From: Nitrospirota bacterium
GTDB taxonomy: Bacteria; Nitrospirota; Thermodesulfovibrionia; Thermodesulfovibrionales; JdFR-86
DNA: 64,000 nt
Reading direction: 5' to 3'
Assembly (NCBI GenBank): GCA_963721805.1
Contig: CAVRJY010000002.1
Span: 320,001 to 384,000 of the forward strand
The position numbers were made by a program, and so were the translations under genes. The notes beneath the pieces were generated by a model that saw nothing but the letters and a program-made list of their open reading frames with translations, made no database searches and was not told the DNA's origin. Positions within the stretch are counted from its first letter, which is position 1; every line of letters starts with the position of its first letter. This document shows positions 24,222 through 44,154 of the stretch, piece by piece.

Positions 24222-27200
24222 ATGAAACACACAGGAATCAAAGGAAGCCGAGGAATCCTTTATCTCATCGGGGGGCTATTGGTAATCTGTTGCGCGGTCA
24301 TGGCCGGTCCGGCGCCCGCAATGGCACAAAATGTGCTCACAGGCATCTTCGAGCTCGACGGCAACTCCTATGACGACCCGGCGGTTGCCGGCGAGGACTT
24401 CGACACGATCTGGAACGCGTATAACGGCACGGGGACGACGGATGCCCTGAAGTACGTCTTCATCCCGGACTTTAACACGCCTGACTCAAGCTATTTCGCC
24501 TCGGGGCCCAAGGACACCGACCTGATCAACCCGGTCGCTCCGGCCACGGGGACCCCGCTGCAGTGCGTAACCATAAATAACCCGCTCAACAAAGACGACG
24601 TACTGAGCGCCTATGCGGCCGCATATACAAACACGGGCGGCGACGAGATGGTCGCCTTCGGGGCCGACCGGGGAACGAATAATGGCGACGCCAATTTCGG
24701 GTTCTGGTTTTTCCAGCGGCCCATATCTTGCGACTCATCGGTCAATAACGGCTACTTTAACGGCCACAAGACGGGCGGAGACCTCTTCATCGTAAGCACC
24801 TTCACCCAGGGCGGAGGCGTCTCGACGGTCAGCGTCTATGAATGGACCGACCCCGACGGCATCGCAGAAAACGGGGACGAATGCCTCGCTGACGGGGTCG
24901 ACTGCACGGCGGCCCATAACGGGGTTCCGCTCATCACTGGCAACGACTGCGTGCAATCGGTCGAGACGAGCCAGTACATCTGCGCCACGGTCAATTCACA
25001 GGTTATACAGACCGCATGGCGGCCGAACGTCCTGACCAACATCTTCTACGAAGGGGGGGTGAACCTCACACACCTGATCGGCAATCTGGGATGCTACGCC
25101 TCGTTCATGTCCGAGACGCGCTCTTCGCAGTCCCTGACCGCTACGATCAAGGATTATGCGCTGGGCAAGCTCAGCACGTGCGGCAGCATAACGGCGGTGA
25201 AGACGACGGTCCCTTCCGGTTCGACGCAGGCATTTAACTTCTCCCTGAACCCGGACCCGTATTCCGCTGGCACCCAGTCCCTCTCCGATACACAGCAGTA
25301 CACCTGGGATTCGCTCAAGAAAGGGACATATACCCTTAGTGAGGCTGCGGCTACCGGCTGGGACCTGACCGCTATAGATTGCGGCGACAAGGTTGCCACG
25401 ACCGACCTGACCGCGGGGACCGCGGCCCTGGACCTCGCTCCGAACGAAGACATCGTCTGTACCTTCACCAATACGAAGCGCGGCCAGATCATTATCGAGA
25501 AGAAGACCGTGGGCGCGGACGGAGACTTCGACTTCACAAGCGCAAAGCTCGGAGACTTCAACCTCTCGACGAACAGCAACGATGCGACGCGGACCTTCGG
25601 CAACCTCCTGCCCGGCTCATACGCGGTTGCTGAAAGCGTTCCGGCAGGGTGGGACCTCGCCAACGCGACATGCAGCGACGGCGACGACCCCGGCTCGATT
25701 ACCCTCGTAGCCGGGCAATCCGTCACCTGCACCTTTACGAACGTCAAGAAGCCGCAGATAACCATTACACCGTCCGCGTACAACGAGGTGGGCACTTCGC
25801 ACACCTTCACCGTGACGGTATCGCAGGGGGCAAACGGCCTATCCGGCATCAAGCCGGCCGTCGCCTTCAGCCCTTCGAACCCCGGCTCGGTGACCGACAA
25901 CTGCGCCTCCACCGGCACCAACTCGAGCGGGCAGTGCACCGTCCTGATCAACAGCACGACGGCGGGGACGTTCAGCGCCTCTGCCTCGGCCTCGTTCAGC
26001 ATCAGCGGCGTCAGCTATAGTATCTCCACTAACGGCACCGGCTCCAACAGCGGCCCTGCGGTGAAGACATACGTGGACGGCGGCATCGCGCTGAGCCCGC
26101 TAACGGCCACGAACGCCGTGGGCCGCGTCCATACGATCACCGCTGAGACGTTCATCAACAACGGCACGACCGCTGAAACGCCGGCGGCCGGTGTCACGGT
26201 GAACTTCAGCCTCTCGAACAACACGGCGGGTGCGACCTTTACCGGCAACAACTACTGCGTCTCTAACGCCACCGGCTATTGCTCGGTACAGATCACCTCT
26301 TCTAACCCCGGCACCGTGACGATCAACGCATCCACGACATTAAACGTAGGAGGCGTTACGTTTACCCGCGCGACCAACGGGAATGCCGGGCCCAACGGCA
26401 CCGGGCCGGCAGTGAAGAATTACGTCAATGCGCGTATCAGCATCGGCAACACGGCCACGAACCTGGCGGGCACTCAGCATACCTTCACCGTTACGGTTGA
26501 GGAGGATAACGGCAGCGGGTTTGCGGGCCTCTCCGGCGTTAACCCGGCCGTCGCCTTCAGCCCAACCAACCCGGGCTCGGTGACCGACAACTGCGCCGCG
26601 ACCGGCACGAATTCAAGCGGTCAGTGCACGGTCGTGATAAACAATACGCTGGCCGGGACGTTTTCGGCCTCCGCCTCGCTGACAATCAGCGGCATTAACC
26701 TCACGATCTCCACCAACGGCATCGCGCCCAACAGCGGTCCGGCGGTGAAGACATACGTGGACGGCGGCATAGCGCTCAGCCCGCTTACGGCCACGGACCC
26801 TGTTGGACATGCACATACGATCACGGCCGAGGTCTATGCTGACAACGGCACGACGGTTGAAACGCCGGCGGCTGGCGTCACCGTGACCTTCAGCCTCTCC
26901 AGCAACACTGCTGGCGCCAGCTTTGTCGGCGGCAACAACACCTGCATATCCAACACCAGCGGGTTTTGCTCGGTACAGATCAACTCCACGGCCCCCGGCG
27001 GCGTTGTGATCAACGCCTCGGCGACGCTTACCGTAGGCGGCGTCACGTTCACGCGTGCGACCAACGGCAACGCCGGGCCTAACGGCACCGGACCGGCCTC
27101 GAAGACCTACGTTGCGGGCCAGATCGTCATCCAGAAGGTGACCAACCCGTCCGGCGACCCTCAGCTCTTCACCTTCACGCCGAGCTACGGGAGCCAGTTC

Positions 27201-28184
27201 ACCCTGACGGGCGGAACTTCCGCCAACAGCGGCTATATCGCACCCGGAACCTACTCGGTCAGCGAAACCGCGGTTACGGGCTGGGACCTGACGGGCGCGA
27301 CCTGCGACAACGGAAACAGTCCGGCGTCGATCACCGTCAGCTCGGGCAGCGTCATTACGTGCACCTTCACCAATACCAAGCGCGGTACGGTGAGCGTGAC
27401 CAAAACCCTGTCGGGGACGACGCCCGGTCAGGGGTTCACCTTCGAGATCAGGACCGGGGCGTCTGTTTCATCGCTGGGGACGATACTCGTCTCTGACGTG
27501 ACCGACGCAAGCGGGCTTGCGGATTTCGGCGGCACGCTGTTCGTTCCCGGGACGTATCAGTTCTGTGAAGACAACATGGCGGCCGGCTTCCACTCGTCCC
27601 TCTCGGACGACACCTCGTCGTTCGTACCTGGCGGCACGGACAATAGCGCGGTATGCGTGAACTTCACCCTTGACCCAGGAGAGGCCCAGACCTTTACGGT
27701 CAACGACACGCCGCCTCCTGGCGGGGACGCCCGCACTATCGGATACTGGAAGAACTGGGGCTCGTGCAGCAGCGGAGGGAAGCGCACGACGCTTGACGGC
27801 ACGCTGAGCGGCTTCCCGATCGCGGCCGGACAGACCACGAACGGGGTCTTCGTCGGCAAGCTCTACGTCGATACGTGCCTGGAAGCCGTCGACATCCTGG
27901 CCAAGTCCACCGTGACTTCGCCGCCCAAGAACATGGCCTCGGACGCCGCCTACAACCTCGCAGCACAGCTGCTTGCGGCGGACCTGAACATCCAGGCCGG
28001 GGCGGGCTCGTGCGCTGCCGCGACATCCGCGATCACTCAGGGGCAGGCGCTTCTGACGAGCATCAACTTCAGGGGCACGACGGGTTACCTGCCCGCGAAG
28101 GCGAAGAACAAGGCCGTGCGGAACCATGCGCTGTCGCTTGCAAACACGCTGGATCTGTATAACAACAACGAGCTCTGCCAGTAA
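24222..28184 (+). CDS. Large secreted/surface protein with repeated Ig-like (SpaA/prealbumin-like and Big-like) domains
   Basis: Signal peptide ending AMA-Q; T/S/G/N-rich; repeated GWDL..C..CTFTN.K units; internal duplication. Confidence 0.85.
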   Translation: MKHTGIKGSRGILYLIGGLLVICCAVMAGPAPAMAQNVLTGIFELDGNSYDDPAVAGEDFDTIWNAYNGTGTTDALKYVFIPDFNTPDSSYFASGPKDTDLINPVAPATGTPLQCVTINNPLNKDDVLSAYAAAYTNTGGDEMVAFGADRGTNNGDANFGFWFFQRPISCDSSVNNGYFNGHKTGGDLFIVSTFTQGGGVSTVSVYEWTDPDGIAENGDECLADGVDCTAAHNGVPLITGNDCVQSVETSQYICATVNSQVIQTAWRPNVLTNIFYEGGVNLTHLIGNLGCYASFMSETRSSQSLTATIKDYALGKLSTCGSITAVKTTVPSGSTQAFNFSLNPDPYSAGTQSLSDTQQYTWDSLKKGTYTLSEAAATGWDLTAIDCGDKVATTDLTAGTAALDLAPNEDIVCTFTNTKRGQIIIEKKTVGADGDFDFTSAKLGDFNLSTNSNDATRTFGNLLPGSYAVAESVPAGWDLANATCSDGDDPGSITLVAGQSVTCTFTNVKKPQITITPSAYNEVGTSHTFTVTVSQGANGLSGIKPAVAFSPSNPGSVTDNCASTGTNSSGQCTVLINSTTAGTFSASASASFSISGVSYSISTNGTGSNSGPAVKTYVDGGIALSPLTATNAVGRVHTITAETFINNGTTAETPAAGVTVNFSLSNNTAGATFTGNNYCVSNATGYCSVQITSSNPGTVTINASTTLNVGGVTFTRATNGNAGPNGTGPAVKNYVNARISIGNTATNLAGTQHTFTVTVEEDNGSGFAGLSGVNPAVAFSPTNPGSVTDNCAATGTNSSGQCTVVINNTLAGTFSASASLTISGINLTISTNGIAPNSGPAVKTYVDGGIALSPLTATDPVGHAHTITAEVYADNGTTVETPAAGVTVTFSLSSNTAGASFVGGNNTCISNTSGFCSVQINSTAPGGVVINASATLTVGGVTFTRATNGNAGPNGTGPASKTYVAGQIVIQKVTNPSGDPQLFTFTPSYGSQFTLTGGTSANSGYIAPGTYSVSETAVTGWDLTGATCDNGNSPASITVSSGSVITCTFTNTKRGTVSVTKTLSGTTPGQGFTFEIRTGASVSSLGTILVSDVTDASGLADFGGTLFVPGTYQFCEDNMAAGFHSSLSDDTSSFVPGGTDNSAVCVNFTLDPGEAQTFTVNDTPPPGGDARTIGYWKNWGSCSSGGKRTTLDGTLSGFPIAAGQTTNGVFVGKLYVDTCLEAVDILAKSTVTSPPKNMASDAAYNLAAQLLAADLNIQAGAGSCAAATSAITQGQALLTSINFRGTTGYLPAKAKNKAVRNHALSLANTLDLYNNNELCQ
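25760..27112 (+). repeat. Intragenic tandem duplication of a two-domain unit (period about 685 bp; boundaries approximate)
   Basis: CCCGGCTCGGTGACCGACAACTGCGCC and GGTGAAGACATACGTGGACGGCGGCAT each occur twice. Confidence 0.8.
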
Positions 28185-29752: not shown

Positions 29753-31141
29753 ATGCCAAAGCCGACTCCAAGCAAAAGGGGTTTGAAGGCCCCTCTCACT
29801 CATGATGCGCCCTCGCGCGCCAAGGCCCCGGCGGAAGACAGCGATAATGCTCTGGGGCCGCAGGCGAGGCTGGCGCGCCTGACGCGGTTTTATTCCGTCT
29901 TAAGCGGGGTCAACGAGGCTATAGTCCGGGTCCGCGATCCCCAGCAGCTCTATACAAAGGTCTGCCGCATCATAGTGGAGCAGGGCGCGTTTACCCTCGC
30001 CTGGATCGGGCTTCTGGAGCCGGAGTCGCGCGAAGTCAGGCAGGCGGCGAGTTACGGCAGGACGGATTATCTCGACGGCATCAGGATCGTAGCAGCGGAC
30101 GTCCCTGAGGGCCGGGGGCCGACCGGCCGCGCCGTCGCCGAGGCCCGGGAGTTCATCTGCAGCGATATCATGGAAGACCCGCTTATGCTGCCCTGGCGGC
30201 AGCGCGCCATTTCCCACGGGCTCCGTTCCTCGGCGTCCTTCCCCCTGCGCATCGGTTCCGAGGCGGTCGGCGCACTGACCATATATTCCGCGATGCCATG
30301 CTTCTTCAGCGACGAGGAGATGGCGCTCCTTTTCTCGCTGGCCGAGGACATCTCCCTGGCGATAGCGTTCATCGAGACCGAGCGCAAGCGCAAGGAGGCG
30401 GAAGACGGCCTCAGGCAGCTAAACGAAGAACTTGAGCGGCGGGTGCTGCAAAGGACGGTCGAGCTTGAGTCCGTCAACAGGGAGCTCGACGCCTTCAGCC
30501 AGTCCGTCGCGCATGACTTGCGCGCACCCCTCCGTTTCATCGACGGCTTCTCGAATATATTGCTGGAAGATCACTCCACGGCCCTGAACGAGGATGGCAG
30601 GAAGCTGCTCTCGTCGATTCGCGGCCATGCCGGCAGGATGGATGAACTCATAAGCGCGCTGCTGTCGCTTGCGCGAGCGGGCCGCCAGGCAATCTCCCTT
30701 TCCCCTCTTGATATGAAATGGCTGGCGGAGTGCGCCTTCGATGAACTGAAGGCTGTTGATCCCTCGAGGGAGGTCCGGTTTATCGCCAAGGCCGTTCCGT
30801 CCGTCAAGGGCGACCTGGTCCTGATCCGGCAGGTTCTTTTCAACCTCATGGGCAATGCCTGGAAGTTCACCTCCAAGCTAAAGGACGCCGTCATAGAATT
30901 CGGGGCCCTTCAGAAGGGCGGCCTGCCCGCCTATTACGTCAGGGACAACGGGGCGGGATTCGACCCCGCGCACGCCGACAGGCTGTTTAAGCCCTTCCAG
31001 CGGTGTCACTCTGACATTGAGTTTGAGGGCACCGGCATAGGCCTGGCTATCGTCGAGCGGATCGTATTGCGTCACGGCGGCAGGGTATGGGCCGAGGGCG
31101 AGACGGGCAGAGGGGCGACCTTCTTTTTCTCATTAGGCTGA
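29753..31141 (+). CDS. GAF-domain sensor histidine kinase
   Basis: GAF; VAHDLRAPL H-box; NLMGNAWKF, DNGAGF, GTGIGL. Confidence 0.93.
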   Translation: MPKPTPSKRGLKAPLTHDAPSRAKAPAEDSDNALGPQARLARLTRFYSVLSGVNEAIVRVRDPQQLYTKVCRIIVEQGAFTLAWIGLLEPESREVRQAASYGRTDYLDGIRIVAADVPEGRGPTGRAVAEAREFICSDIMEDPLMLPWRQRAISHGLRSSASFPLRIGSEAVGALTIYSAMPCFFSDEEMALLFSLAEDISLAIAFIETERKRKEAEDGLRQLNEELERRVLQRTVELESVNRELDAFSQSVAHDLRAPLRFIDGFSNILLEDHSTALNEDGRKLLSSIRGHAGRMDELISALLSLARAGRQAISLSPLDMKWLAECAFDELKAVDPSREVRFIAKAVPSVKGDLVLIRQVLFNLMGNAWKFTSKLKDAVIEFGALQKGGLPAYYVRDNGAGFDPAHADRLFKPFQRCHSDIEFEGTGIGLAIVERIVLRHGGRVWAEGETGRGATFFFSLG

Positions 31142-31389
31142 TAAATACCGGATACCGCGGAATCGGCCGCGTTTGACCGTGGCTTGCCCGCAGGCCGCCT
31201 TACCGCCCCCCGATCCAGCTGTTTTCCCTCTGATTTCGGCTTTTCCTGGTAACCCTAAATTTAGCTATTATATTTTTTTATCTTATGATTTATAATAAGG
31301 AGGTTTTGCCACGGCACGGGGAGGCATCTGAGAGACGGCCCCATGCGGCATTGTATACTAAAATATACGATCTCCATTAAGGAGGAACG

Positions 31390-32274
31390 ATGGGCGGCAA
31401 GGTGCTTGTGGTGGACGACGACGCGGTCGTCTTAAGGAGCTGCGAGAAGATCTTAAAGACCGAGGGCTACGAGGTCCGCCTGACCTCCTCGCCCAAAGAG
31501 GGTCTTGCGATACTGGGCGCTGAGTCCTTCGACGCCCTGATAACCGACATCAAGATGCCCGAGATGGACGGCATAGAGCTGATCCGCAAGGTGCGCTCCC
31601 AGCCGGGCTCCTCGGACGTGGGCATCATCCTCATCACCGGCTTCCCGTCACAGGAAAACATCCGCGAGGCCCTGAAGCTCGGCATCGTGGACTACCTGCC
31701 CAAGCCGTTCTCCCCAGCCCTCCTGCTTGAGGTCGCGGCGCGCGCCATCAAGGGCGCGTCCGCCCAGCCCGAGGAGCCGCAGGAGCAGGACAAGGCCGAG
31801 GCCATGATGGGCGAGATCTCAAAGATCATCCAGCAGTACAAGGGCAGGCCCGGAAGCCTCCTGCCGGTGCTCCATGCGGTCAAGACCCTCGTAGGTGACC
31901 TCACTCCGGTGGTCCAGCGCTACATAGCGCGCGGGATGAACCTGCCGGTGAGCGAGGTCTACGGCGTCGTGTCTTTCTACCCCTCGTTCTCGGGCAAGCG
32001 CAGCGCGCGAGATAGCAAGCCCAAGGGCAAAAACCACGTCAAGGTCTGCATCGGCCCCGCGTGCGTGGTCAAGCGCTCCGAGGAGATAGTAGAGCGGATC
32101 AAGGACATCCTCGGCATAGACCTGGGCGAGATCACGCCGGATAAGTCCTTCTCTCTGGAGGCGGTCAAGTGCCTCGGGATGTGCGGCCTGGCCCCGGTGG
32201 TCGTAGTCGGCAAGGAGACCCACGGCGGCATAACCGCGGCGGACGCCGAGGCCGTGATCGGGCAGTACCGCTGA
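31390..32274 (+). CDS. Receiver domain fused to a NuoE/HoxE-like [2Fe-2S] subunit
   Basis: VVDDD, ITDIKMP, ITG, KPF followed by VYGVVSFY, CIGPAC, CLGMC. Confidence 0.9.
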   Translation: MGGKVLVVDDDAVVLRSCEKILKTEGYEVRLTSSPKEGLAILGAESFDALITDIKMPEMDGIELIRKVRSQPGSSDVGIILITGFPSQENIREALKLGIVDYLPKPFSPALLLEVAARAIKGASAQPEEPQEQDKAEAMMGEISKIIQQYKGRPGSLLPVLHAVKTLVGDLTPVVQRYIARGMNLPVSEVYGVVSFYPSFSGKRSARDSKPKGKNHVKVCIGPACVVKRSEEIVERIKDILGIDLGEITPDKSFSLEAVKCLGMCGLAPVVVVGKETHGGITAADAEAVIGQYR

Positions 32275-32310
32275 TATGCGATCCCTAACATTTAATATGG
32301 AGGTCCTTTG

Positions 32311-34221
32311 ATGGCTGAAGGCTACCGTGCGGAACTGATGGTCTGCGGGGGTACGGGCTGTATCTCCGGCGGAGGTCACAAGATAAAGGAAGCCTTTGAC
32401 GCCGAGTTCGCCAAGCGCGGCCTCTCCTCTGACTACCGCGTAGTGCTCTCCGGATGCATCGGCATATGCGGAGACGGCCCGGTCGTGCTCGTCCAGCCCG
32501 AGGGCGTGCTCTATGAGAACGTAAAGCCCGAGGACGCCACTTTGATAGTCGAGGAGCACTTCGTGGGCGGCAAGCCTGTGGAGAAGCTCATGTTCAAGGA
32601 CCCCTCAAAGGCCGGGGCCAAGATACCGCTTATAAAGGATATACCGTACTTCAACCTCCAGACGCCGATGACGCTCCGCAACAGGGGCCATATCGACCCC
32701 GAGAGCATAGACGACTACATCGCCAGAGACGGCTACAAGGCCGTAAAGCGCGCCCTGACAGAGATGGCCCCCCAGGAGATCATCAAGATGATGAAGAACT
32801 CCGGGATGCGCGGCCGCGGCGGCATAGGATATCCCACCGGGCTTAAGTGGGAGATCTGCGGCATGGTCAAGGCCGACCAGAAATATATTATCTGCAACGG
32901 CGACGAGGGCGACCCAGGCGCATACATGGACCGCGGCATCATGGAGAGCGACCCCCACGCGATCATCGAGGGCATGATAATCGGCGGGCGCGCCGTAGGG
33001 GCCACGAAAGGCTATTTCTACGTCAAGGCCGAGCATACTAATCCTATCGAGCGCGTGACCAAGGCGGTAGAGCAGGCGCGCGAGAGGGGATTCCTGGGCA
33101 AGGACATCCTCGGCAGCGGGTTTGATTTCGATATCGAGATATTTCTCGGGGCCGGGGCATCGGTATGCTCGGAGTACACCGCGCTGCTGCGCGCGATTGA
33201 GGGCAAGCGCGGGATGCCGCGCCCGGTCCCGCCGCTGTCTATCTTCAAGGGCCTCTGGGACAAGCCCACGATGCTCGATAACGTCGAGACCTTCGCGCAC
33301 ATACCGCTCGTGGTGCAAAACGGGCCTGACTGGTTCAGGGAGATGGGGACGATGAAGTCCCCCGGCACGAAGGTCCTGGCGCTCGCCGGATCGCTCGTGA
33401 ACACCGGGCTCGTCGAGGTCCCGATGGGGACACCGCTAAGGAAGATCATCTTCGACATCGGCGGCGGGGTGAAGAAGGGCCGCAAATTTAAAGCAGTCCA
33501 GATGGGCGGCCCGGCCGGGGGGTGCATCCCCGAGAGCCTGCTCGACACGCCTCTCACTTATGAGGACATCCCGACAACCGGCGCTGTAATCGGGGCCGGG
33601 GGCATGGTCGTGATGGACGACCTCAACTGCATGGTCTCGATAGCCAAGTCGTTTATCGAGTTCATTACTGACGAGTCCTGCGGCAAGTGCCCGCCGTGCA
33701 GGATCGGGACGATGGTGATGTATGAGATCTTGCAGGACATCGTCGACGGCAAGGGCAAGCCAGAGGACATATTAAACCTGATAGACCTGGGGGAGGACAT
33801 CTCCGAGACCTCGCTCTGCGGGCTCGGGCAAGCCGCGCCGAACCCGGTGCTCACGACCATACGCCACTTCCGCGAGGAGTACGACGAGCACGTCAACCAG
33901 AAATACTGCCGCGCCGGGGTGTGCAAGGACCTCATAACGTTCTATATAGACGATACCGCGTGCAAGGGCTGCGGCGTATGCGCCCGCGCATGCCCGGTCA
34001 AGGCCATCTCGGGCGAGAAAAAGCAGCCCCACCGAATAGACCAGTCGGTCTGCGCGCGCTGCCGCGGCTGCTACGAGGCCTGCAAGTTCGGGGCGGTGCG
34101 CATAGGGCCGGCCTCGATGAAGGCCGAGCTCATGAAGAAACAGGCCGAGCTGGCCGAGGTCGCAGCGGCCGTCGGGGCCACGGCTGAGCCGGAGAAGCCG
34201 TCAGGGCCGGCGGAGGCATAG
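32311..34221 (+). CDS. NuoF/HydB-like flavoprotein with N-terminal thioredoxin-like 2Fe-2S and C-terminal 2x[4Fe-4S]
   Basis: RGRGG.G.PTG.KW, DEGDPGA, ESCGKCPPCR, SLCGLG, CKGCGVC..CP, CARCRGC..C. Confidence 0.92.
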   Translation: MAEGYRAELMVCGGTGCISGGGHKIKEAFDAEFAKRGLSSDYRVVLSGCIGICGDGPVVLVQPEGVLYENVKPEDATLIVEEHFVGGKPVEKLMFKDPSKAGAKIPLIKDIPYFNLQTPMTLRNRGHIDPESIDDYIARDGYKAVKRALTEMAPQEIIKMMKNSGMRGRGGIGYPTGLKWEICGMVKADQKYIICNGDEGDPGAYMDRGIMESDPHAIIEGMIIGGRAVGATKGYFYVKAEHTNPIERVTKAVEQARERGFLGKDILGSGFDFDIEIFLGAGASVCSEYTALLRAIEGKRGMPRPVPPLSIFKGLWDKPTMLDNVETFAHIPLVVQNGPDWFREMGTMKSPGTKVLALAGSLVNTGLVEVPMGTPLRKIIFDIGGGVKKGRKFKAVQMGGPAGGCIPESLLDTPLTYEDIPTTGAVIGAGGMVVMDDLNCMVSIAKSFIEFITDESCGKCPPCRIGTMVMYEILQDIVDGKGKPEDILNLIDLGEDISETSLCGLGQAAPNPVLTTIRHFREEYDEHVNQKYCRAGVCKDLITFYIDDTACKGCGVCARACPVKAISGEKKQPHRIDQSVCARCRGCYEACKFGAVRIGPASMKAELMKKQAELAEVAAAVGATAEPEKPSGPAEA

Positions 34222-34267
34222 CGGACATTGAGAAAAGTCATTCCGAGCAAGGAGAGAGACACCCGAT

Positions 34268-36769
34268 ATGCCGGATAAGATAGAGATAACGATAGACGGC
34301 AGGAAGCTTAAGGTCAGGCCCCGTTCCACGATCCTCAACGCCGCACTGGAGCACGGCATCTACATACCGCACCTCTGCTACGACCGCAGGCTGAAGCCCT
34401 TTGGCGGCTGCCGGCTCTGCATCGTCGAGGTCAAGGGCATAAGGAAGCCCCGCACCGCCTGCACCGCCCCGGTCGAGCCTGGCATGGTCATATACACCGA
34501 CACGCCCAAGCTCCAGAAGGCCCGGCGCACCGTGGTCGAACTCCTCCTGCTGCACCACCCGCTGGAGTGCCCCTATTGCGACAAGGCCGGCGAGTGCCTG
34601 CTTCAGGACATGGCATACAAGTACGGCCCGGTACAGAGCCGGTTCAAGGCCGAGAAGCGCAGCGGCCCGGCGCTGACCGAGGCCCCGCTTGTCGAGCGCA
34701 ACCCCAAGCGCTGCATACTGTGCGGCAAGTGCGTGCGCGTATGCGGCGAGCACCAGGGCGTTGGCGCGATTGACTTCATCGACCGTGGCTTTATCACAAA
34801 GATCAGCCCCCCGTTTGAAGAGACGCTGGACTGCGAGTTCTGCGGCCAGTGCATAGACGTATGCCCGGTGGGCGCGCTAGGGAGCAAGACCTACCGCTCG
34901 CTCTCTCGCGTCTGGTACCTCGAGGAGAGGCAGAACATCTGCCCGCACTGCGGCGTGGGCTGCACCGTTACGCTCGGGATACAGGACGGCAAGATCATGC
35001 GCTCGGTGGGCAAGGACGGCGTCGGGATGAACCTCGGCGACCTCTGCGGCCGCGGGCGGTTCGGGCTCGATTACGTTGGCTCTGAGAAGCGCCTGACCAA
35101 GCCCCTCATCCGCGACGGCGAGGGCGTCCTGCGCGAGGCCACCTGGGCCGAGGCGATAGGCGTCATCAAAAAGCGCCTCGGAGAGGTCATCGCGGCCCAC
35201 GGGCCGCAGGCGGTTGGCGCGATAGGCTCGCAGCGCTGCACGATAGAGGACAACTTCATGCTCCAGCGCTTCATGCGAAGCGTCGTGGGCAGCGGCAATA
35301 TCGACTCTCTCGCGAGGTTCGGCACGGCGATGGCGCAGGGCGCTGTGAAGCGCTCGATGGGGCTTGAGGTGCCGCTTGCGGACTTCGACGCTCCGATGGA
35401 CGCGGACCTGATACTGACGGTCGAGAGCGACATCACCGCGACGCACCCGGTATTCGGTCTGAAGCTGCTGGCCGCAGCGCGCGACCAGAAGGCCAAGCTC
35501 ATCGTGCTCGACTCGCGCATGAACAAGCTCTCGCGGCACGCCACCAGCTGGCTCAGGCTCCGCCCCGGCACCTCCGTGGCGCTCCTAAACGGGATAATGA
35601 AGTGCATGATAGACGAGGGGCTCGCCGCGCCTTCGGCCTCCGGCATCCCTCAGTTTGAGGCCTTAAAGAAATCCCTCGAGGACTATACGCCCGAGCGCGC
35701 CGAGACAGTTTGCGGCGTCTCGGCCGATGCGATACGCGATGCGGCGCGCGCGATAGGAGCCTCAAAGCGCAAGCTCGTATGCATCACCACCGGTTCGGCC
35801 GAAAACAACAAGGGCGCAAACGCGGTGCTCGCGGCCGGAAACCTCGTGCTGCTAAGCGGCGGCGGGGCCGAGGCCCTGCAGATCCCTGGCAGCTACTGCA
35901 ACACTATCGGGATGCTCGAGGCGGGCGTCAGGCCCGATGCCGGACCCGGCCACACCCCCATCGAGAACCCCGGGCTCGACGCGGCCTCGATGCTCTGCAC
36001 CGAGGCCAGCCCGATGCGCGCGATGTACGTCATGGGCGAAAACCCTGTGATCACGTTTCCCGAGTCGAAGACCGTCGAGCAGACGCTTAAGGCCATGGAG
36101 TTTCTGGTCGTGCAGGACATCATGCTCACCGACACGGCGAAGCTCGCCCACGTCGTCCTGCCGGCCTCGAGCTGGGCCGAGAAGGACGGCACGTTTGTAG
36201 GCATGACCGGCATACCGCAGAAGATAGTACCGTGCGTCCCACCGACCGGGGAGTCGCTCCCGGACTGGCGGATATTCCACGACATCGCCTCGGCGATGGG
36301 ACGGGACATCGACGCCGGGGATTTCAAGGAGCTCACGGCCGAGGTATGCAAGGCAGTGCCGCTTAATTATGACCTCACCTCCTCGAGCCCGGCCTTCGTG
36401 CCCGTGGCCCAGTCCGGCGGCGTCGAGCCCTCGGCCGACTATCCGTTTACGATGGTAACCGGCATCCTGATGCAGCACTCCGGGAGCCTGACGACGCTGT
36501 CTAAGGGGCTCGAAAGCGTAGTGTCCGACGCTTACCTTCAGATCAACGCAGAGGACGCCGCTGCCTCCGGAATAGCTGATGAGAAATTCGTGCGCGTCTC
36601 ATCCCCCAAGGGCGAGATATTCCTCAAGGCCCGCGTCACCGACGAGGTCCCGGCCGGGATGCTCTTCGTGCCGGCCCACTTCCCCCATGCGAGGGTCAAT
36701 ACGCTGCGCACGCTGCCGCCCGCGGACGGCGGCCACAGCCTGGTCGCCGTGAAGGTGGAGCCTGCGTAA
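34268..36769 (+). CDS. NuoG/FdhA-like Fe-S and molybdopterin-family subunit lacking the Cys/Sec metal ligand
   Basis: Five Fe-S motifs; NIDSLARFG at the position of NVDNCARV(U/C)H. Confidence 0.88.
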   Translation: MPDKIEITIDGRKLKVRPRSTILNAALEHGIYIPHLCYDRRLKPFGGCRLCIVEVKGIRKPRTACTAPVEPGMVIYTDTPKLQKARRTVVELLLLHHPLECPYCDKAGECLLQDMAYKYGPVQSRFKAEKRSGPALTEAPLVERNPKRCILCGKCVRVCGEHQGVGAIDFIDRGFITKISPPFEETLDCEFCGQCIDVCPVGALGSKTYRSLSRVWYLEERQNICPHCGVGCTVTLGIQDGKIMRSVGKDGVGMNLGDLCGRGRFGLDYVGSEKRLTKPLIRDGEGVLREATWAEAIGVIKKRLGEVIAAHGPQAVGAIGSQRCTIEDNFMLQRFMRSVVGSGNIDSLARFGTAMAQGAVKRSMGLEVPLADFDAPMDADLILTVESDITATHPVFGLKLLAAARDQKAKLIVLDSRMNKLSRHATSWLRLRPGTSVALLNGIMKCMIDEGLAAPSASGIPQFEALKKSLEDYTPERAETVCGVSADAIRDAARAIGASKRKLVCITTGSAENNKGANAVLAAGNLVLLSGGGAEALQIPGSYCNTIGMLEAGVRPDAGPGHTPIENPGLDAASMLCTEASPMRAMYVMGENPVITFPESKTVEQTLKAMEFLVVQDIMLTDTAKLAHVVLPASSWAEKDGTFVGMTGIPQKIVPCVPPTGESLPDWRIFHDIASAMGRDIDAGDFKELTAEVCKAVPLNYDLTSSSPAFVPVAQSGGVEPSADYPFTMVTGILMQHSGSLTTLSKGLESVVSDAYLQINAEDAAASGIADEKFVRVSSPKGEIFLKARVTDEVPAGMLFVPAHFPHARVNTLRTLPPADGGHSLVAVKVEPA

Positions 36770-36861: not shown

Positions 36862-39300
36862 ATGAAACCGCGCATCTCGATCCACGCCAAGCTCTTCGCG
36901 GTCACGATCGTGGTGCTTAGCGTCGTGCTCGCGGGCGGATTTTATTTCATCCTCAGGTTCCAGTCCGAGCGCGTCCGCGACACGCTCGCGCGCAACACCG
37001 CATCGCTCTCGGAGGTCCTGGCCAGCACGGCAGGAAACGTGGTCGCTAAGATGGCCGACGCCCGCCGGGTGTTAGACGCGGTGTCCGCGGGCCTTATCAA
37101 TTCCGGCGATCTCCTGGGCGTCGAGGTCCACTCGCCCATAATCGGAATCATCAGCAACGCCACGAGTCCGGGGTTTGGGTTCGCGGCCCCCGAGCTTCTG
37201 GCCGCCGGGATATCCAGCGCTTACAGGGACGGACGCATAGCCTCGATGCGTGACGGCGGCGTCTATTACCGCTTCGTGCCTATCAGCGGTGACGGCGCAC
37301 CGGAGGGGGTCGCGGTATTCGCATCGGCCTCGGTCATCCGCGACGGCGCGCTTACCGCGATGGTGGGCGAAGGGCTTGGCCACATATACTCCGCCGAGGT
37401 CCACGGCGGCCTGCTCTACCTCCAGAGGCTCGCAAGCGAGATCGGGACTCTCGAGGGCGTGCGCGGCGTGCTGATATGCGATTCCGGCGGAAACGTGCTT
37501 GCCGCCTCAAAGGGCATGCGCCGTGATGTCGTGGAGTTCGACCCCATGCCCTACATCAGGGAGGCCTTATCCAATCGCCGCGCGATCGCGGTGGAAGCCC
37601 CTGCGGGGGACTTGATCTTCAGGCCGATCCCGGCCGCGGCCGGCCCCGGCATCGACGGCGTGATCGGGCTTCAGTCTGACCTGAGCGCCGCAAGGCGCGA
37701 CACCGCGTATCTGCGCTATGACATGCTGGCCGCCTGGGCCGTGACCCTCGCGGCGCTCTCAGCGATCATAGGGCTGATGGTGCGCAAGCTCATACTTCAG
37801 CCTGTCAAGGGGCTCGTGAAGCTGACTGAAGCGGTGGCCTCGGGCGACCTCAGAGGCCGGGCGGCGCTCAACACCGGGGACGAGTTCGAGGTTCTCGGGG
37901 ACTCGTTTAACCGCATGCTGGGCGACATCGAACGCTCACATGACGAACTGACCGCGTCGCGCGATTTCCTGGAGCGCATCCTAGCGCATATGAACGAGGC
38001 CGTCCTGGTCTTCACTTCGGGGGGGATCGTCTGGGCCTCGAACGCATCGGCGCAATCCATAAGCGGCTACGGCAAGGAAGAGCTCGATTCTCTGGGGTTC
38101 AGGGAGATTTTCAGCGGATTTCCGGGGGATGGCGGCAAGGACATCGCGGAGCTCTGCGACGGCAGGGAGATGACGCTTAAGCGCAGAGACGGCGTATTAG
38201 TGCCGGTTGCGGTCTCCTGCGCATCGATGGAAGACGATGGGCAGGTCTTCGTCTTGCAGGACATAAGCGGGCGCAAAAAGGCCGAGGAGGCGCTAAGGGC
38301 CTCGGAGGAGAAGTTTTCGAAGGCCTTCCTGGCCTCACCGGACCTGATCCTGATAAGCAGGCTCAGCGACGGGAGGATCATCGACTGCAACGAGTCGGTC
38401 CTGAACTCATTGGGCTACGAAAAAGGCGAGGTCTTGGGCAGGACGACCGAGGAAGCCGGGTTCTGGAAGGGCCAGAGCGCATCGCGCGACGAGTTCGTGG
38501 GCCGCATAGTGCACGAGGGCCGGGCAAGGGAATTCGAGATGCTCTTTGACGTCCGCGGGGAGCCCAGGACGCTGCTGGTCTCATCGGAGCCGATCTCGGT
38601 AGGCGGCGAGGACTGCCTCCTGAGCGTCGCACACGACGTCACAGAGCGCAAACGCGCGGAGGCGCGCCTCAGGGCCGCTATCTCCGAGAAGGAGGTCCTG
38701 CTCCGCGAGGTCCACCACCGCGTCAAGAACAACCTGCAGGTCATCCAGAGCATGCTCTCGATGCAGGCGATGCACATCAAGGACACAGCAACGGAGCGCG
38801 CGTTCCGCGAGAGCCAGGGCAGGGTGCGCTCGATGGCCCTGATACACGAGCGGTTCTACCGCTCCGGGGACCTCTCGCGTATAGACTTCGGCGAGTACAC
38901 AACATCGCTGCTGCGCCAGCTGTTTTCGATCTACGGGGCTGACCCCGGCCGGATCGCGACGCGGGTCGAGGCCGGGGGCGTCAGCCTCCCGATTGACTAC
39001 GCGATACCCTGCGGCATTATCATCAACGAGATAGTCTCGAACTCGCTGAAATACGCCTTCCCGGACGGACGGCCGGGCGAGATCTTCGTAGTGCTGCAGC
39101 GGCCGGCGGAGGGGAGGGTCAGCCTCAGCATCGGAGATGACGGCGCGGGCATCCCCGGAGGCCCTGACCTCTCGGGGATGAAGAGCCTCGGGCTCCACCT
39201 GGTGCGCATACTGGCCGAGGACCAGCTCGAGGGCGCCCTGAGCGTATCGGCGGGCGGGGAAAATGGTGTTGTTTTTAGGGTGGAGTTTGCTGTAACCTGA
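36862..39300 (+). CDS. Membrane HAMP-PAS-PAS HisKA_2-type histidine kinase
   Basis: Two TMs, HAMP (DEFEVLGDSFNRM), EVHHRVKNNLQ, DDGAG. Confidence 0.92.
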   Translation: MKPRISIHAKLFAVTIVVLSVVLAGGFYFILRFQSERVRDTLARNTASLSEVLASTAGNVVAKMADARRVLDAVSAGLINSGDLLGVEVHSPIIGIISNATSPGFGFAAPELLAAGISSAYRDGRIASMRDGGVYYRFVPISGDGAPEGVAVFASASVIRDGALTAMVGEGLGHIYSAEVHGGLLYLQRLASEIGTLEGVRGVLICDSGGNVLAASKGMRRDVVEFDPMPYIREALSNRRAIAVEAPAGDLIFRPIPAAAGPGIDGVIGLQSDLSAARRDTAYLRYDMLAAWAVTLAALSAIIGLMVRKLILQPVKGLVKLTEAVASGDLRGRAALNTGDEFEVLGDSFNRMLGDIERSHDELTASRDFLERILAHMNEAVLVFTSGGIVWASNASAQSISGYGKEELDSLGFREIFSGFPGDGGKDIAELCDGREMTLKRRDGVLVPVAVSCASMEDDGQVFVLQDISGRKKAEEALRASEEKFSKAFLASPDLILISRLSDGRIIDCNESVLNSLGYEKGEVLGRTTEEAGFWKGQSASRDEFVGRIVHEGRAREFEMLFDVRGEPRTLLVSSEPISVGGEDCLLSVAHDVTERKRAEARLRAAISEKEVLLREVHHRVKNNLQVIQSMLSMQAMHIKDTATERAFRESQGRVRSMALIHERFYRSGDLSRIDFGEYTTSLLRQLFSIYGADPGRIATRVEAGGVSLPIDYAIPCGIIINEIVSNSLKYAFPDGRPGEIFVVLQRPAEGRVSLSIGDDGAGIPGGPDLSGMKSLGLHLVRILAEDQLEGALSVSAGGENGVVFRVEFAVT

Positions 39301-39341: not shown

Positions 39342-41036
39342 TTGACCAAGAAAAGGATCCTCATAGTCGAGGACGAGAAGATCATATCCGAGGACATCCG
39401 CTCCTCGCTCGTCTCGCTAGGCTACGAGGTCGCTGACATAGCATCCTCAGGCGAGGAGGCGATCAAGAAGGCCGTCGACCTGAGGCCGAACCTCGTCCTT
39501 ATGGACATCATCCTCAAGGGCCAGGTCGACGGGATCAAGGCCGCGGCCCATATACGGAGCAACTACGGCATACCCGTCGTATACCTCACGTCGCACTCCG
39601 ACGAGCCCACGCTGCGCCGCGCAAGGGAGTCCGGGCCTTTCGGGTACATACTCAAGCCCTTCGACGTCCGGGACCTCCGCACCACGATCGAGATGGCGTT
39701 TCACAGCGCGCAGGTCGAAAAGGCGCTTAAAGACAGCGAGCGCTGGCTCTCGGTCACGCTCAGGAGCATCGGAGACGCGGTAGTCGTGATCGACGCCGCC
39801 GGAAGTGTCGAGTTCGTTAACCCGGCTGCCGAGGCGCTCACCGGCTGGGCGCTGCAGGACATCGTCGGCCGGCCGCTGGAGGAGGCGATCAAGCTCCTGG
39901 ACGCGACCTCCGGCGCGGTGCTGCACGACATCAGCTCGCTGGTCATCGCGGGCGGCGGCAACCCGGTCAGGTCCGCCGAGGGCGCGGTGCTCGTGGCGCG
40001 CGACGGCAGGAGGATACACGTCGACGTCAACGCCTCCCCGATCCGCGACAGGGACAACGCCATATCTGGCGTGGTCACGATTTTCCACGACATAACGGAG
40101 CGGATCGAGGCCGAGGGCGCGGTGAGGAAGTCCGAGCGGTTCCTGAGCACGGTCTTTGAGAGCATCCACGACCCGTTTTGCATCCTCGACCGCGACTACC
40201 GCATCGTGCGCGTAAACTCCGCCTACGCGAGGTTCCGCGGCCAGCCGGCCGAGGCCCTGCTGGGCAGGGTCTGCTACGAGACCTACAGCTCCGAAGGCAC
40301 GCCGAACCCGTGCGTGGAGTGCCCGGTGACCAAGACCCTCTCGACCGGAGAGCCGTGCGTCATAGAGCGTTACCACCCCGGCAAGGACGGGGCCGAGGTC
40401 TGGCTCGAGACCTACACCTATCCGGTGCTCGGCGAGAAGGGCGAGGTCTCGCGCGTCGTCGAATACACGCGCGACATCACCGAGCGCAAGCGCGGCGAGA
40501 TCGAGCGCTCCAGGCTGATCAAGGAGCTTGAATACCTCTCGCGCACCGACCGCCTGACGAAGCTGTTTAACCGCGGGGCGCTGATCGAGCGGCTCGAGTC
40601 CGAGGTCGAGAGGGTCAACCGCTACGGCTCGAGCCTGTCTCTGCTTCTGTGCGACATAGACAACTTCAAGCCGATCAACGACACCTACGGCCACGCCGAG
40701 GGCGACAGGGCGCTGGAGCTGATATCGAGCATCCTGAGCGCCGAGGTCCGCGCCACGGACATAGTCGGCCGCCACGGGGGCGACGAGTTCATGATCATCC
40801 TGCCGGAGACGAACATCCCGAGCGGCCGCGAGATAGCCGATCGCATAAGGAAGGCGGTCGAGGGCGCGAATTTCGCGGTCACGACCGGCGAGAAGCTCCG
40901 CCTGAGCCTCAGCATGGGGCTCACGGCTTATATCCCGGGGGATGTGGACTTCAACCCGATGATGAAGCGCGCCGACGACGCCCTTTACCTCTCTAAGCGC
41001 GGCGGCAGAAACCGCATCTCAGTGCTTACCGCATAG
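39342..41036 (+). CDS. REC-PAS-PAS-GGDEF diguanylate cyclase
   Basis: IVEDE/LMDI/KPF; D.LT.LFNR, DIDNFK.IND.YGH, RHGGDEF. Confidence 0.93.
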   Translation: MTKKRILIVEDEKIISEDIRSSLVSLGYEVADIASSGEEAIKKAVDLRPNLVLMDIILKGQVDGIKAAAHIRSNYGIPVVYLTSHSDEPTLRRARESGPFGYILKPFDVRDLRTTIEMAFHSAQVEKALKDSERWLSVTLRSIGDAVVVIDAAGSVEFVNPAAEALTGWALQDIVGRPLEEAIKLLDATSGAVLHDISSLVIAGGGNPVRSAEGAVLVARDGRRIHVDVNASPIRDRDNAISGVVTIFHDITERIEAEGAVRKSERFLSTVFESIHDPFCILDRDYRIVRVNSAYARFRGQPAEALLGRVCYETYSSEGTPNPCVECPVTKTLSTGEPCVIERYHPGKDGAEVWLETYTYPVLGEKGEVSRVVEYTRDITERKRGEIERSRLIKELEYLSRTDRLTKLFNRGALIERLESEVERVNRYGSSLSLLLCDIDNFKPINDTYGHAEGDRALELISSILSAEVRATDIVGRHGGDEFMIILPETNIPSGREIADRIRKAVEGANFAVTTGEKLRLSLSMGLTAYIPGDVDFNPMMKRADDALYLSKRGGRNRISVLTA

Positions 41037-42770: not shown

Positions 42771-44154
42771 ATGAAAAAGCCCTGGTCCGGACGATTTAAG
42801 GAATCCACCGCGCCCGCGGTCGAGGAGTTCACGGAATCCGTCTCATTCGATAGCCGGCTCTGGCCCTTTGACATACAGGGCAGCATCGCGCACGCGGGCA
42901 TGCTCGCAAGGCAGGGCATAATCTCGAAGCCCGAGGCCGCGAAGATCGTGCGCGGGCTTTCGGACATCGCCCACGACATAGACGCCGGCAAGTTCAAGTT
43001 CGACCCGGGCCTCGAGGACGTGCACATGAACATCGAGGCCGAACTCACTAGGCGCATCGGCGCGGCCGGGGGCAAGCTCCATACCGCGCGCAGCCGCAAC
43101 GATCAGGTCTGCCTCGACATGCGCCTGTATCTGCGCCACGAATGCCGCGAGATCACCTCGGCGCTAACCTCGCTGATGACGGTGCTCGTGCGCTGCTGCG
43201 GAGGCCGGGATAGATACGGTCATGCCCGGCTATACGCATACGCAGCGCGCGCAGCCGGTGCTGCTCGCCCACCACCTGCTGGCGTACGTCGAGATGTTCC
43301 TTAGAGACCGCGACAGGATTGAGGACGGCCTTAAGCGCATAAACGTCATGCCCTTGGGCGCCTGCGCGCTTGCCGGGACGAGCCTGCCTATCGACCGCAG
43401 ATATGTAGCGAAGGCGCTCGGGTTCGGCTCGGTCAGCCAAAACAGCATGGATGCGGTCTCGGACCGCGACTTCATGGTAGAGTTCCTCTCGGTCGCGAGC
43501 ATCATAATGATGCACCTCTCGCGCCTGAGCGAGGAGATGGTGCTCTGGAACTCCGAGGAGTTCGGGTTCGTAACGCTTCCCGACGCCTTTGCGACCGGAT
43601 CGAGCATCATGCCCCAAAAGAAAAACCCGGACGTCCCGGAGCTCGTGCGCGGCAAGACAGGCCGGGTATACGGCGACCTCGTGGCGCTCCTTACGATCAT
43701 GAAGGCCCTGCCGCTGGCTTATAACCGCGACATGCAGGAGGACAAGCCCCCCGTATTCGACGCCGTCGATACCGTGAAGGCATCGCTGCGCGTGATGGCC
43801 GAGATGCTCGCACGCGTGAGGTTCAACCGCGCTCGCATGGCCGATACCGCGTCCAAGGGATACTCGACCGCGACCGACGTGGCGGAGTACCTCGTGCGCA
43901 AGGGCATGCCATTCAGGGACGCCCACGAGGTCACGGGGAAGATCGTGGCGCATGCCATCGCCTCTGGCAAGGAGCTTGCCGGGCTTACGCTTAAGGATTA
44001 CCAGGGGTTTTCGCGCCTGTTTAAAAAAGACGTGCTTCAGGCCGTGAGCGTCGCGGCCTCGGTCGATTCGAGGGCATCGGAGGGCGGCACCTCGCCCCGA
44101 GCGGTCACGAAGCGCCTGGCCGAGATCAAGACCGTGCTGGGCATCAGGAAATGA
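42771..44154 (+). CDS. argH: Argininosuccinate lyase, frameshift near 43190
   Basis: [18 protein letters not shown] in one frame; [22 protein letters not shown] in the next. Confidence 0.95.

Follow-up and report, generated by a model that had tools for sequence, protein, structure and literature searches.

A receiver-fused BfuCBA module with a rebuilt NAD pocket in a Thermodesulfovibrionales bacterium: a candidate kinase-switched electron input to complex I

The window analysed here, a 64,000-nucleotide stretch of a Nitrospirota genome of the order Thermodesulfovibrionales (assembly GCA_963721805.1, contig CAVRJY010000002.1, positions 320,001 to 384,000), carries a three-gene operon in which a phospho-receiver domain (REC) is fused to a NuoE-type subunit, followed by a HydB-type flavoprotein and a NuoG-type iron–sulfur (Fe-S) protein. 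Judged by architecture and descent, the encoded trimer is a member of the Bfu family (BfuC, BfuB, and BfuA); it reads neither as an electron-bifurcating enzyme linked to nicotinamide adenine dinucleotide (NAD) nor, because the operon lies outside the nuo operon, as a strict Nuo-Bfu. The best explanation overall, which we put forward tentatively, is that of a kinase-switched, NAD-blind BfuCBA that would feed electrons from ferredoxin, or from another non-NAD donor, to a complex I lacking its NuoEFG head. Such a reading rests on the REC-NuoE fusion, on a flavoprotein whose NAD pocket has been rebuilt around intact cofactor sites, on gene order and trees that tie the module to complex I, and on a membrane kinase encoded elsewhere in the same genome.

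The fusion is real and old. The initial annotation had described an intact receiver joined to a four-Cys NuoE domain, and this was borne out, with Response_reg (aa 5-115) and 2Fe-2S_thioredx (aa 143-293) lying in a single frame that comprises a receiver (aa 1-122), a helical linker, and a thioredoxin-like [2Fe-2S] C1 domain (aa 143-293). An assembly artefact is ruled out, since both Pfam domains are present in 120 of the 120 listed homologues and a match spanning both was found in 45 of 60 related genomes, from 11 of 13 families. The named hits are from Nitrospirota, mostly Thermodesulfovibrionales, and include three independent sequences at 81-88% identity; among more distant fusions, 15 of 26 picked cluster representatives carry both domains. 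The residues expected of a receiver, namely the acidic pocket, the phospho-Asp, the switch Thr, and the Lys on a (beta/alpha)5 fold, are all in place, and D9, D10, D53, T83, and K105 are kept, together with the cluster ligands C220, C225, C261, and C265, in all 120 listed homologues. The AlphaFold model (mean predicted local distance difference test score, pLDDT, 86.5; predicted template modelling score, pTM, 0.49) shows two confident domains, the receiver with (beta/alpha)5 topology, and the scores indicate that the REC and C1 domains are well folded with their relative orientation left unfixed; the best Foldseek matches are FdsG, HydC, and NuoE chains. Within this lineage, which also has a 7-aa insertion of its own near aa 203-209, family-invariant sites are changed at 1 of 34 positions in the receiver versus 13 of 66 in the NuoE part, and the receiver is thus under strong constraint.

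According to the family definition of Schut et al. (2022, PMC9304861), BfuB contains FMN (flavin mononucleotide), B1, and C-terminal ferredoxin domains, BfuC a single [2Fe-2S] cluster, and BfuA [2Fe-2S] and [4Fe-4S] domains, and the Pfam domains of all three proteins agree with that definition. The flavoprotein consists of an N-terminal thioredoxin Fe-S domain, an FMN domain, an SLBB domain, a B1 cluster, and a C-terminal 2x[4Fe-4S] domain, with HydB (7t2r_B and 7q4v_B) as best matches in the PDB. All 23 of its 23 family-consensus cysteines are kept (the variable site 543 being left out), as are the B2 ligands C441, H528, C534, and C539 and the N-terminal B5 site C13, C18, C50, and C54. It is set apart from a canonical NuoF, which has about 420 aa and neither the N-terminal thioredoxin nor the C-terminal ferredoxin domain, by its 637 aa and the presence of both, and its score against NCBIfam nuoF_fam (457 bits) falls below the cut-off of 559.

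At most of its NAD-contact residues this NuoF-like subunit departs from its family, a point overlooked in the first reading. With residues numbered from the TTG at 32308 rather than the ATG at 32311, and mapped as A. mobile HydB numbering + 3, the pocket substitutions are A173I, F175Y, F285S, G288S, E290Y, R307V, F310L, P311S, N324D, S403A, and S430A, so that each of the five named loops around FMN and NAD bears a change; the changed sites are NAD contacts also in the structures of A. aeolicus NuoF and C. saccharolyticus NfnB. The ribose-binding E287 and the adenine-stacking F307 of HydB, both expected of a bifurcating BfuB, have become Y290 and L310, and F282 has become S285. The FMN ligands K177, N194, and E197 are kept as K180, N197, and E200, as are D199 and E289. 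As for the marks of bifurcation given by Losey 2020, the A/E-x-M motif is present as A205-Y206-M207, with the middle Phe replaced by Tyr, the Phe of the GAGAF loop is replaced by S285, and the GGPSG of the SLBB domain reads GGPAG; the Phe and the Ser are each found in 117 of 117 other top homologues. The suggestion of a possibly bifurcating diaphorase, made in the initial annotation, therefore holds for the family, which keeps AFM, the Phe, and GGPSG, and fails for the source copy, in which two of the three marks are missing and the ribose Glu and adenine-stacking Phe are lost.

The combination S-S-Y at 285/288/290 was found in 3 of 245 distinct sequences, these being the source copy and two close relatives from other assemblies, which share its changes; the three are ~85% identical to one another, and no rebuilt pocket was found in the 10 other genomes of the family that were searched. 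Changed invariant sites make up 9 of 14 in the NAD pocket versus 53 of 320 elsewhere, and 0 of 26 in the ferredoxin arm. The AlphaFold model of BfuB (mean pLDDT 76.7) has pocket loops of low confidence and was not used. A pocket rebuilt in this way, with the FMN ligands, the Fe-S cysteines, and the receiver all kept, makes ordinary NAD-linked bifurcation unlikely, and the odds lean toward NADH being no longer the substrate.

Several relatives vary the same genes in other ways. The receiver-fused modules of family f3 (L121, L122, L126, L127, and L128) have a BfuB without the NxDEGD flavin-side loop (NAGP plus a 6-residue gap) and with GGPTG for GGPSG, the ribose Glu and the clusters being kept, which by sequence is an independent remodelling of the same flavin/NAD site. 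Ser or Ala occupies the ribose-Glu site in 27 of 117 top BfuB homologues (L107, P0141, P0146, and others), with linked changes at 310-311, and this group is a candidate NADP-type variant. In Zixibacteria, a REC-NuoE fusion that is 32% identical (L038:5023-10103) is accompanied by BfuB, a short BfuA, and an HdrA-like FAD/Fe-S gene; it possibly arose independently, as its BfuB lies outside the Nitrospirota clade. At L123:7331-8179 the same type of receiver is fused to the HATPase gene of an accessory cassette, with an N-terminus near-identical to that of the REC-NuoE of the same locus.

The third subunit points toward complex I. BfuA carries a [2Fe-2S] cluster, a His-ligated [4Fe-4S] cluster, two further [4Fe-4S] motifs, and a molybdopterin-fold domain, and its best PDB matches are FdsA chains. 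It has NIDSLARFG where formate dehydrogenases show ARVCH, a replacement that leaves it without a Mo/W ligand, and in the tree (41 rows, quick, with support from the SH-like approximate likelihood ratio test, SH-aLRT, only) it groups with canonical NuoG of nuo operons and with nuo-embedded BfuA (support 96), the selenocysteine formate dehydrogenase of the source genome falling apart from it. Identity as a formate dehydrogenase is ruled out by this placement and by the missing Cys/Sec-His metal ligand; FdsABG and Fdh-Bfu have the same three-subunit layout and differ from the present module in that ligand, and the true selenocysteine formate dehydrogenase of the source genome is a separate gene.

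In the source genome, the nuo operon, nuoABCD-HIJKLM without EFG, lies ~50 kb beyond the module on the same contig, outside the window (C2:415709-407286), and ends after nuoM at a 1.2-kb insertion sequence present in several 100%-identical copies (G000 C2:407286-405800); nuoN is intact on another contig (C1:1255238-1253805, L142). All 11 other Nuo subunits are thus present, and canonical NuoEFG was not found in the genome, which is 94% complete. In 9 other Nitrospirota loci (L010-L017, L019) an unfused E-HndB-F-G comes after nuoABCD plus a DRTGG/CBS/PHP/HATPase cassette, and 6 of them continue into nuoH, an arrangement matching the Nuo-Bfu predicted for Nitrospirae (PMC9304861). The fused form stands within the nuo operon in L117, as the sole head, and in L123, beside a canonical head, and it is head-to-head with nuoA in L032, L118, L120, L130, L131, L134, and L140. 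Consistent with that, the BfuB tree (built from 60 of the 109 rows, with outgroups at about one in three; quick, SH-aLRT only) nests the fusion-linked Nitrospirota clade (96) in a clade with nuo-embedded forms (98), although the sister relations inside this clade and inside the BfuA clade are not resolved. Both gene order and the trees link the module with complex I, and by its sequence the module descends from a bifurcating-type head of complex I, the predicted Nuo-Bfu. Whether it also docks on complex I we regard as an even question. A complex prediction for BfuA (1-700) with NuoI scored 0.13 against a mark of 0.32, with no controls folded, and is left out of the reckoning; the module or its kinase was placed beside nuo genes in ~13 of 45 genomes, the others being unlinked or cut by contig ends.

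The initial annotation had proposed that the two flanking kinases act on the receiver, and here the results led elsewhere. Among 52 fusion loci, many of which end at contig ends, the GAF kinase at 29753 has no full-length counterpart, and the HisKA_2/GGDEF pair that includes the kinase at 36862 recurs in 2, both of the same family, so that the flanking kinases are probably not partners of the module. A different kinase of ~530 aa, with a periplasmic domain, HAMP, HisKA, and HATPase, lies upstream, together with receiver genes, in 16 of the 52 loci. In the 60 relatives, kinase and fusion were both present in 45, neither was found in 13, the kinase alone occurred in 2, and the fusion alone in 0; the 13 genomes span 7 families, one of the kinase-only cases lies at a contig end, and the counts ignore kinship, the genomes being related and not independent. 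Direct two-component control is in this way favoured indirectly, by the constraint on the receiver and by kinase co-occurrence, with a donor other than the two that had been named.

Helix 1 of a receiver sets its kinase specificity. The receivers of the cassette share a helix-1 signature, [S/A/T]-C-x-[R/K], in 33 of 34, 8 of 8, and 18 of 21 members of three classes; in REC-NuoE it takes the form S17-C18, S17 being kept in 119 of 120 and C18 in 120 of 120 top homologues, although the pattern scored 34 of 51 REC-NuoE proteins in the loci, partly via misregistered starts and S-A variants. Of the 85 receiver domains in the source genome (3 unreadable), REC-NuoE alone has the signature, and the receiver of the neighbouring REC-PAS-PAS-GGDEF gene at 39342 is without it. 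The source orthologue of the cassette kinase is encoded at C4:301743-300166 (560 bits, versus 248 for the next) and nests in a family clade of cassette kinases (99), with the kinase of G003 as its nearest relative, as for BfuB; a 600-aa paralogue was ruled out as its identity by the tree. No receiver lies next to it, whereas a signature receiver directly follows 6 of the other 7 kinases compared from the clade. These matches make the C4 kinase the probable donor to Asp53, and phosphorylation of Asp53 in vivo is predicted with still greater assurance.

Of the 15 cassette kinases compared, 14 carry CxxCH in the sensor domain, and all 15 carry a second motif there, C-x4-8-CH. The C4 kinase and its family subclade keep the second Cys/His motif only; loss of the first as an event specific to the source lineage was rejected, the entire 8-row subclade being without it. 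The C4-type domain weakly resembles Pfam Mcp40H-20_sensor, a family that binds heme c.

Put together, the mechanism would run as follows. The C4 membrane kinase would sense a periplasmic redox or ligand signal through its Cys/His, heme-c-like sensor and phosphorylate Asp53 of REC-NuoE, and the phospho-receiver may then switch the module at the protein level, most likely through its oligomeric state, through its docking, or through the motion of the domain that bears C1, a motion that gates electron flow in Bfu cores. Electrons from ferredoxin, several small forms of which are encoded in the source genome, would enter at B3/B4, pass via C1, FMN, and B1 to the A clusters, and leave the module at its His-ligated cluster for NuoI in the headless complex I. 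In its strictest form, as a ferredoxin-only, NAD-blind Bfu head for complex I that is turned on and off by aspartyl phosphorylation from a periplasmic redox-sensing kinase, the proposal is a speculative one.

It has to be noted that several observations weigh against the reading of a kinase-switched, NAD-blind head. As for the pocket, the Fisher test for its enrichment in changes (p 1.4e-4) is post hoc, because the 14 sites were picked from papers after the motif changes had been seen, and the rebuilt variant is known from three sequences, two of them without genomic context. Ser, Ala, or Gly replaces the same Glu in 41 of 245 family members, so that dinucleotide binding could survive the change at 290, and N324D falls within the NNVET motif, which we take to be FMN-contacting, so that FMN may be affected too. 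The co-occurrence of kinase and fusion can reflect shared operon loss instead of direct phosphotransfer. With regard to complex I, among 34 fusion-bearing genomes with a readable nuo operon (the source genome included, and G027 left out for its non-standard locus), canonical NuoEFG is present in 25, among which are G003 and G005, the closest relatives; 8 are headless, and 1 has the fused module alone. For the greater part of the order the module can therefore be no more than an alternative head, and the notion that it always replaces a missing NuoEFG was rejected as a rule. In 10 fusion-less genomes that were read, 5 operons are headless, 3 canonical, and 2 cut short, which means that a headless complex I does not need the module; in addition, several headless genomes have a second NuoD locus outside these operon counts, and the source genome itself is 94% complete.

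Some of these points suit other explanations better. A soluble electron hub under kinase regulation, unconnected with complex I and coupled to another partner encoded elsewhere, corresponds to the main reading of the initial annotation and fits an operon that stands alone here and in many relatives, a canonical head already present in most of the fusion-bearing genomes, and the limited number of genomes in which nuo genes adjoin; we consider it unlikely, as BfuA has no catalytic ligand and falls with NuoG in the tree, the 52 loci show no recurring alternative catalytic partner beside the operon (judged against the reference set only), and the fused module is the sole head inside the nuo operon of L117. 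We give a similarly low weight to a phospho-switched module that changed its nucleotide specificity, e.g. to NADP(H), and still bifurcates, whether as complex I head or free. The retained K180, N197, D199, E200, and E289, the complete set of bifurcating-core clusters, and the natural replacement of the ribose Glu speak for it, and in E. coli NuoF replacing this Glu reportedly favours NADPH; however, the Ser/Ala variants still have F285 and G288 and, in most cases, a basic residue at 307. All three are lost in the source lineage, which has instead a bulky Tyr at 290, and two of the three bifurcation marks fail.

A role as a redox sensor, in which the state of the Fe-S clusters or the flavin would alter the gain or loss of the receiver phosphate and so feed back on the kinase, would account for a catalytic pocket rebuilt next to a conserved receiver, and in family f3 the flavin-side loop was independently damaged with receiver and clusters kept. 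This we hold to be improbable, because no second signature receiver that could relay the signal was found in the source genome, the single-receiver and REC-GcvH genes of the cassette have no counterpart found there, and a full 833-aa BfuA wire is not obviously needed. Least probable by far is a decaying relic of an ancestral module under relaxed selection. Differences at 50 of 267 family-invariant BfuB sites (0-22 in 50 other members), the long branches of BfuB, BfuA, and the kinase, and the fact that neither HndB nor the DRTGG/HATPase/PHP accessory cassette was found in the source genome, at its 94% completeness, would agree with it, but the frames are open and all cluster cysteines are kept. 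Moreover, the stem of the rebuilt trio in the BfuB tree is long (0.45) and its tips are short (0.04-0.10), and the rebuilt domain, 87% identical across the three sequences, is among their most conserved parts, which indicates a shift followed by conservation and not decay.

Compared with known systems, the module shares with Nuo-Bfu (PMC9304861, BfuB clades 38/39 including Nitrospirae) a BfuC, a BfuB with five cluster sites, a BfuA with a His-ligated A3 cluster and no catalytic centre, and relatives in the middle of nuo operons; it differs in the receiver on BfuC, the detachment from nuo, and the rebuilt NAD pocket, and the word "kinase" does not occur in the main text of that paper. The closest structural kin of BfuB are the bifurcating cores of A. 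mobile NiFe-HydABCSL (7T2R, PMC8880783) and C. saccharolyticus NfnABC (PMC11829005), from which the module differs by having no hydrogenase or Nfn part, by the fused receiver, and by the pocket changes described above. The closest earlier case of a receiver on complex I comes from mycobacteria, where the orphan response regulator MSMEG_2064/Rv3143 acts on the enzyme by protein contact (PMC10068793, PMC9274095); that protein is, however, a separate subunit placed on NuoB/A/C/I, with a buried Asp and a kinase that is unknown, whereas here the receiver is fused to a NuoE-type subunit and there is a named candidate for its kinase. Functional analogues of the favoured reading, in which a low-potential carrier feeds complex I, are the 12-subunit complex I of Campylobacter, for which flavodoxin input was proposed, and the 11-subunit enzymes, for which ferredoxin was proposed (PMC3144371, PMC11238625); these dropped NuoEF or NuoEFG, whereas here the trimer was kept and the nucleotide site alone rebuilt. 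No description of a REC-NuoE fusion was found in the literature covered, most subscription papers and the supplements of PMC9304861 lying outside that coverage.

As a rule, response regulators exert their effect by way of gene expression. With a receiver placed in the gating subunit of a Bfu or complex I input module, a sensor kinase could throttle electron flow directly, and a respiratory entry point would then be gated post-translationally by a two-component system; the idea is testable in the source genome, since this retains one candidate kinase and one matching receiver. The mechanism of Bfu enzymes is itself debated, and one proposal is that NAD binding triggers the conformational cycle (PMC11829005). 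A natural BfuB that has the FMN ligands and all clusters and a rebuilt NAD site would put that proposal to a direct test, in which ordinary family members serve as controls, and, if indeed NAD-blind, would serve for probing the role of NAD in the cycle.

Table. Features of the receiver-fused BfuCBA locus and its immediate neighbours, in window coordinates.
Feature	Position	Strand	Length	Basis
REC-BfuC (REC-NuoE/HydC) fusion	31390..32274	+	294 aa	Pfam, alignments, AlphaFold, Foldseek
Predicted phospho-acceptor Asp53 codon	31546..31548	+		Sequence; D in 120/120 listed homologues
BfuB/HydB-type flavoprotein	32311..34221	+	636 aa from ATG at 32311	Pfam, PDB matches, alignments, start context
BfuA, NuoG type	34268..36769	+	833 aa	Pfam, PDB alignments, tree
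Intergenic region with AT-rich stretch and ribosome site	31142..31389	+	248 bp	Sequence
GAF-HisKA-HATPase kinase, neighbour, probably outside the system	29753..31141	+		Pfam
HAMP-PAS-HisKA_2 kinase, neighbour	36862-39300	+		Pfam
REC-PAS-PAS-GGDEF gene, neighbour	39342-41036	+		Pfam

The neighbouring genes listed in the table flank the operon as had been read initially, and no membrane Nuo or hydrogenase gene was seen among the open reading frames (ORFs) adjoining it, in an annotation that did not extend to every ORF of the window. An AGGAGG ribosome site precedes the ATG of the fusion gene, and the intergenic region upstream is the probable promoter region of the three-gene operon; scans of it for promoters found no sigma-70 or sigma-54 consensus and nothing exceeding shuffles. 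Among the sequencing runs listed as matching there was none of RNA, and two DNA runs matched with small shares. The HisKA_2 kinase and the GGDEF gene probably form a pair of their own, and may be co-transcribed, the gaps being 92 and 41 bp.

In other genomes, the gene usually found just upstream of the fusion encodes a receiver with a GCV_H-like domain (Pfam GCV_H, E 2.9e-06; L009:6698-7468 plus 33 similar genes), with no full-length counterpart in the source genome. A cassette of DRTGG, HATPase, DRTGG, PHP, and HATPase genes (L009:1781-4204 and many loci) accompanies fused and unfused modules alike, in deltaproteobacterial loci as well.

The source genome has two other BfuCB sets, each with its own gene context. 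One of them (C2:62195-59858) is without BfuA and stands next to a ligase gene, presumably for formate-tetrahydrofolate ligase. It may pair with a formate dehydrogenase alpha subunit of ~900 aa with N-terminal Fe-S domains, encoded in the window at 51748-54453 (-) and split in ORF lists, in which a TGA codon in frame at the catalytic position (ARV*H) points to a selenocysteine enzyme. The other (G000 C1:1378153-1370961, L144), with BfuC, BfuB, an Fe-S gene, and a short BfuA, resembles the predicted Codh-Bfu; its BfuB carries Ser at the ribose-Glu site, and the gene beside it is one that we assume to be CO dehydrogenase-like.

Elsewhere in the window, positions 1-24000 have a GC content of 40-52% versus ~62% in the remainder, which suggests acquired DNA whose end falls just short of a gene at 24222-28184 for a pilin/Ig-like surface protein of 1320 aa. 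A lyase-like gene at 42771-44154, which we take to be argininosuccinate-lyase-like, comes as two ORFs that overlap (42771-43304 and 43222-44154), which suggests a frameshift or a sequence error.

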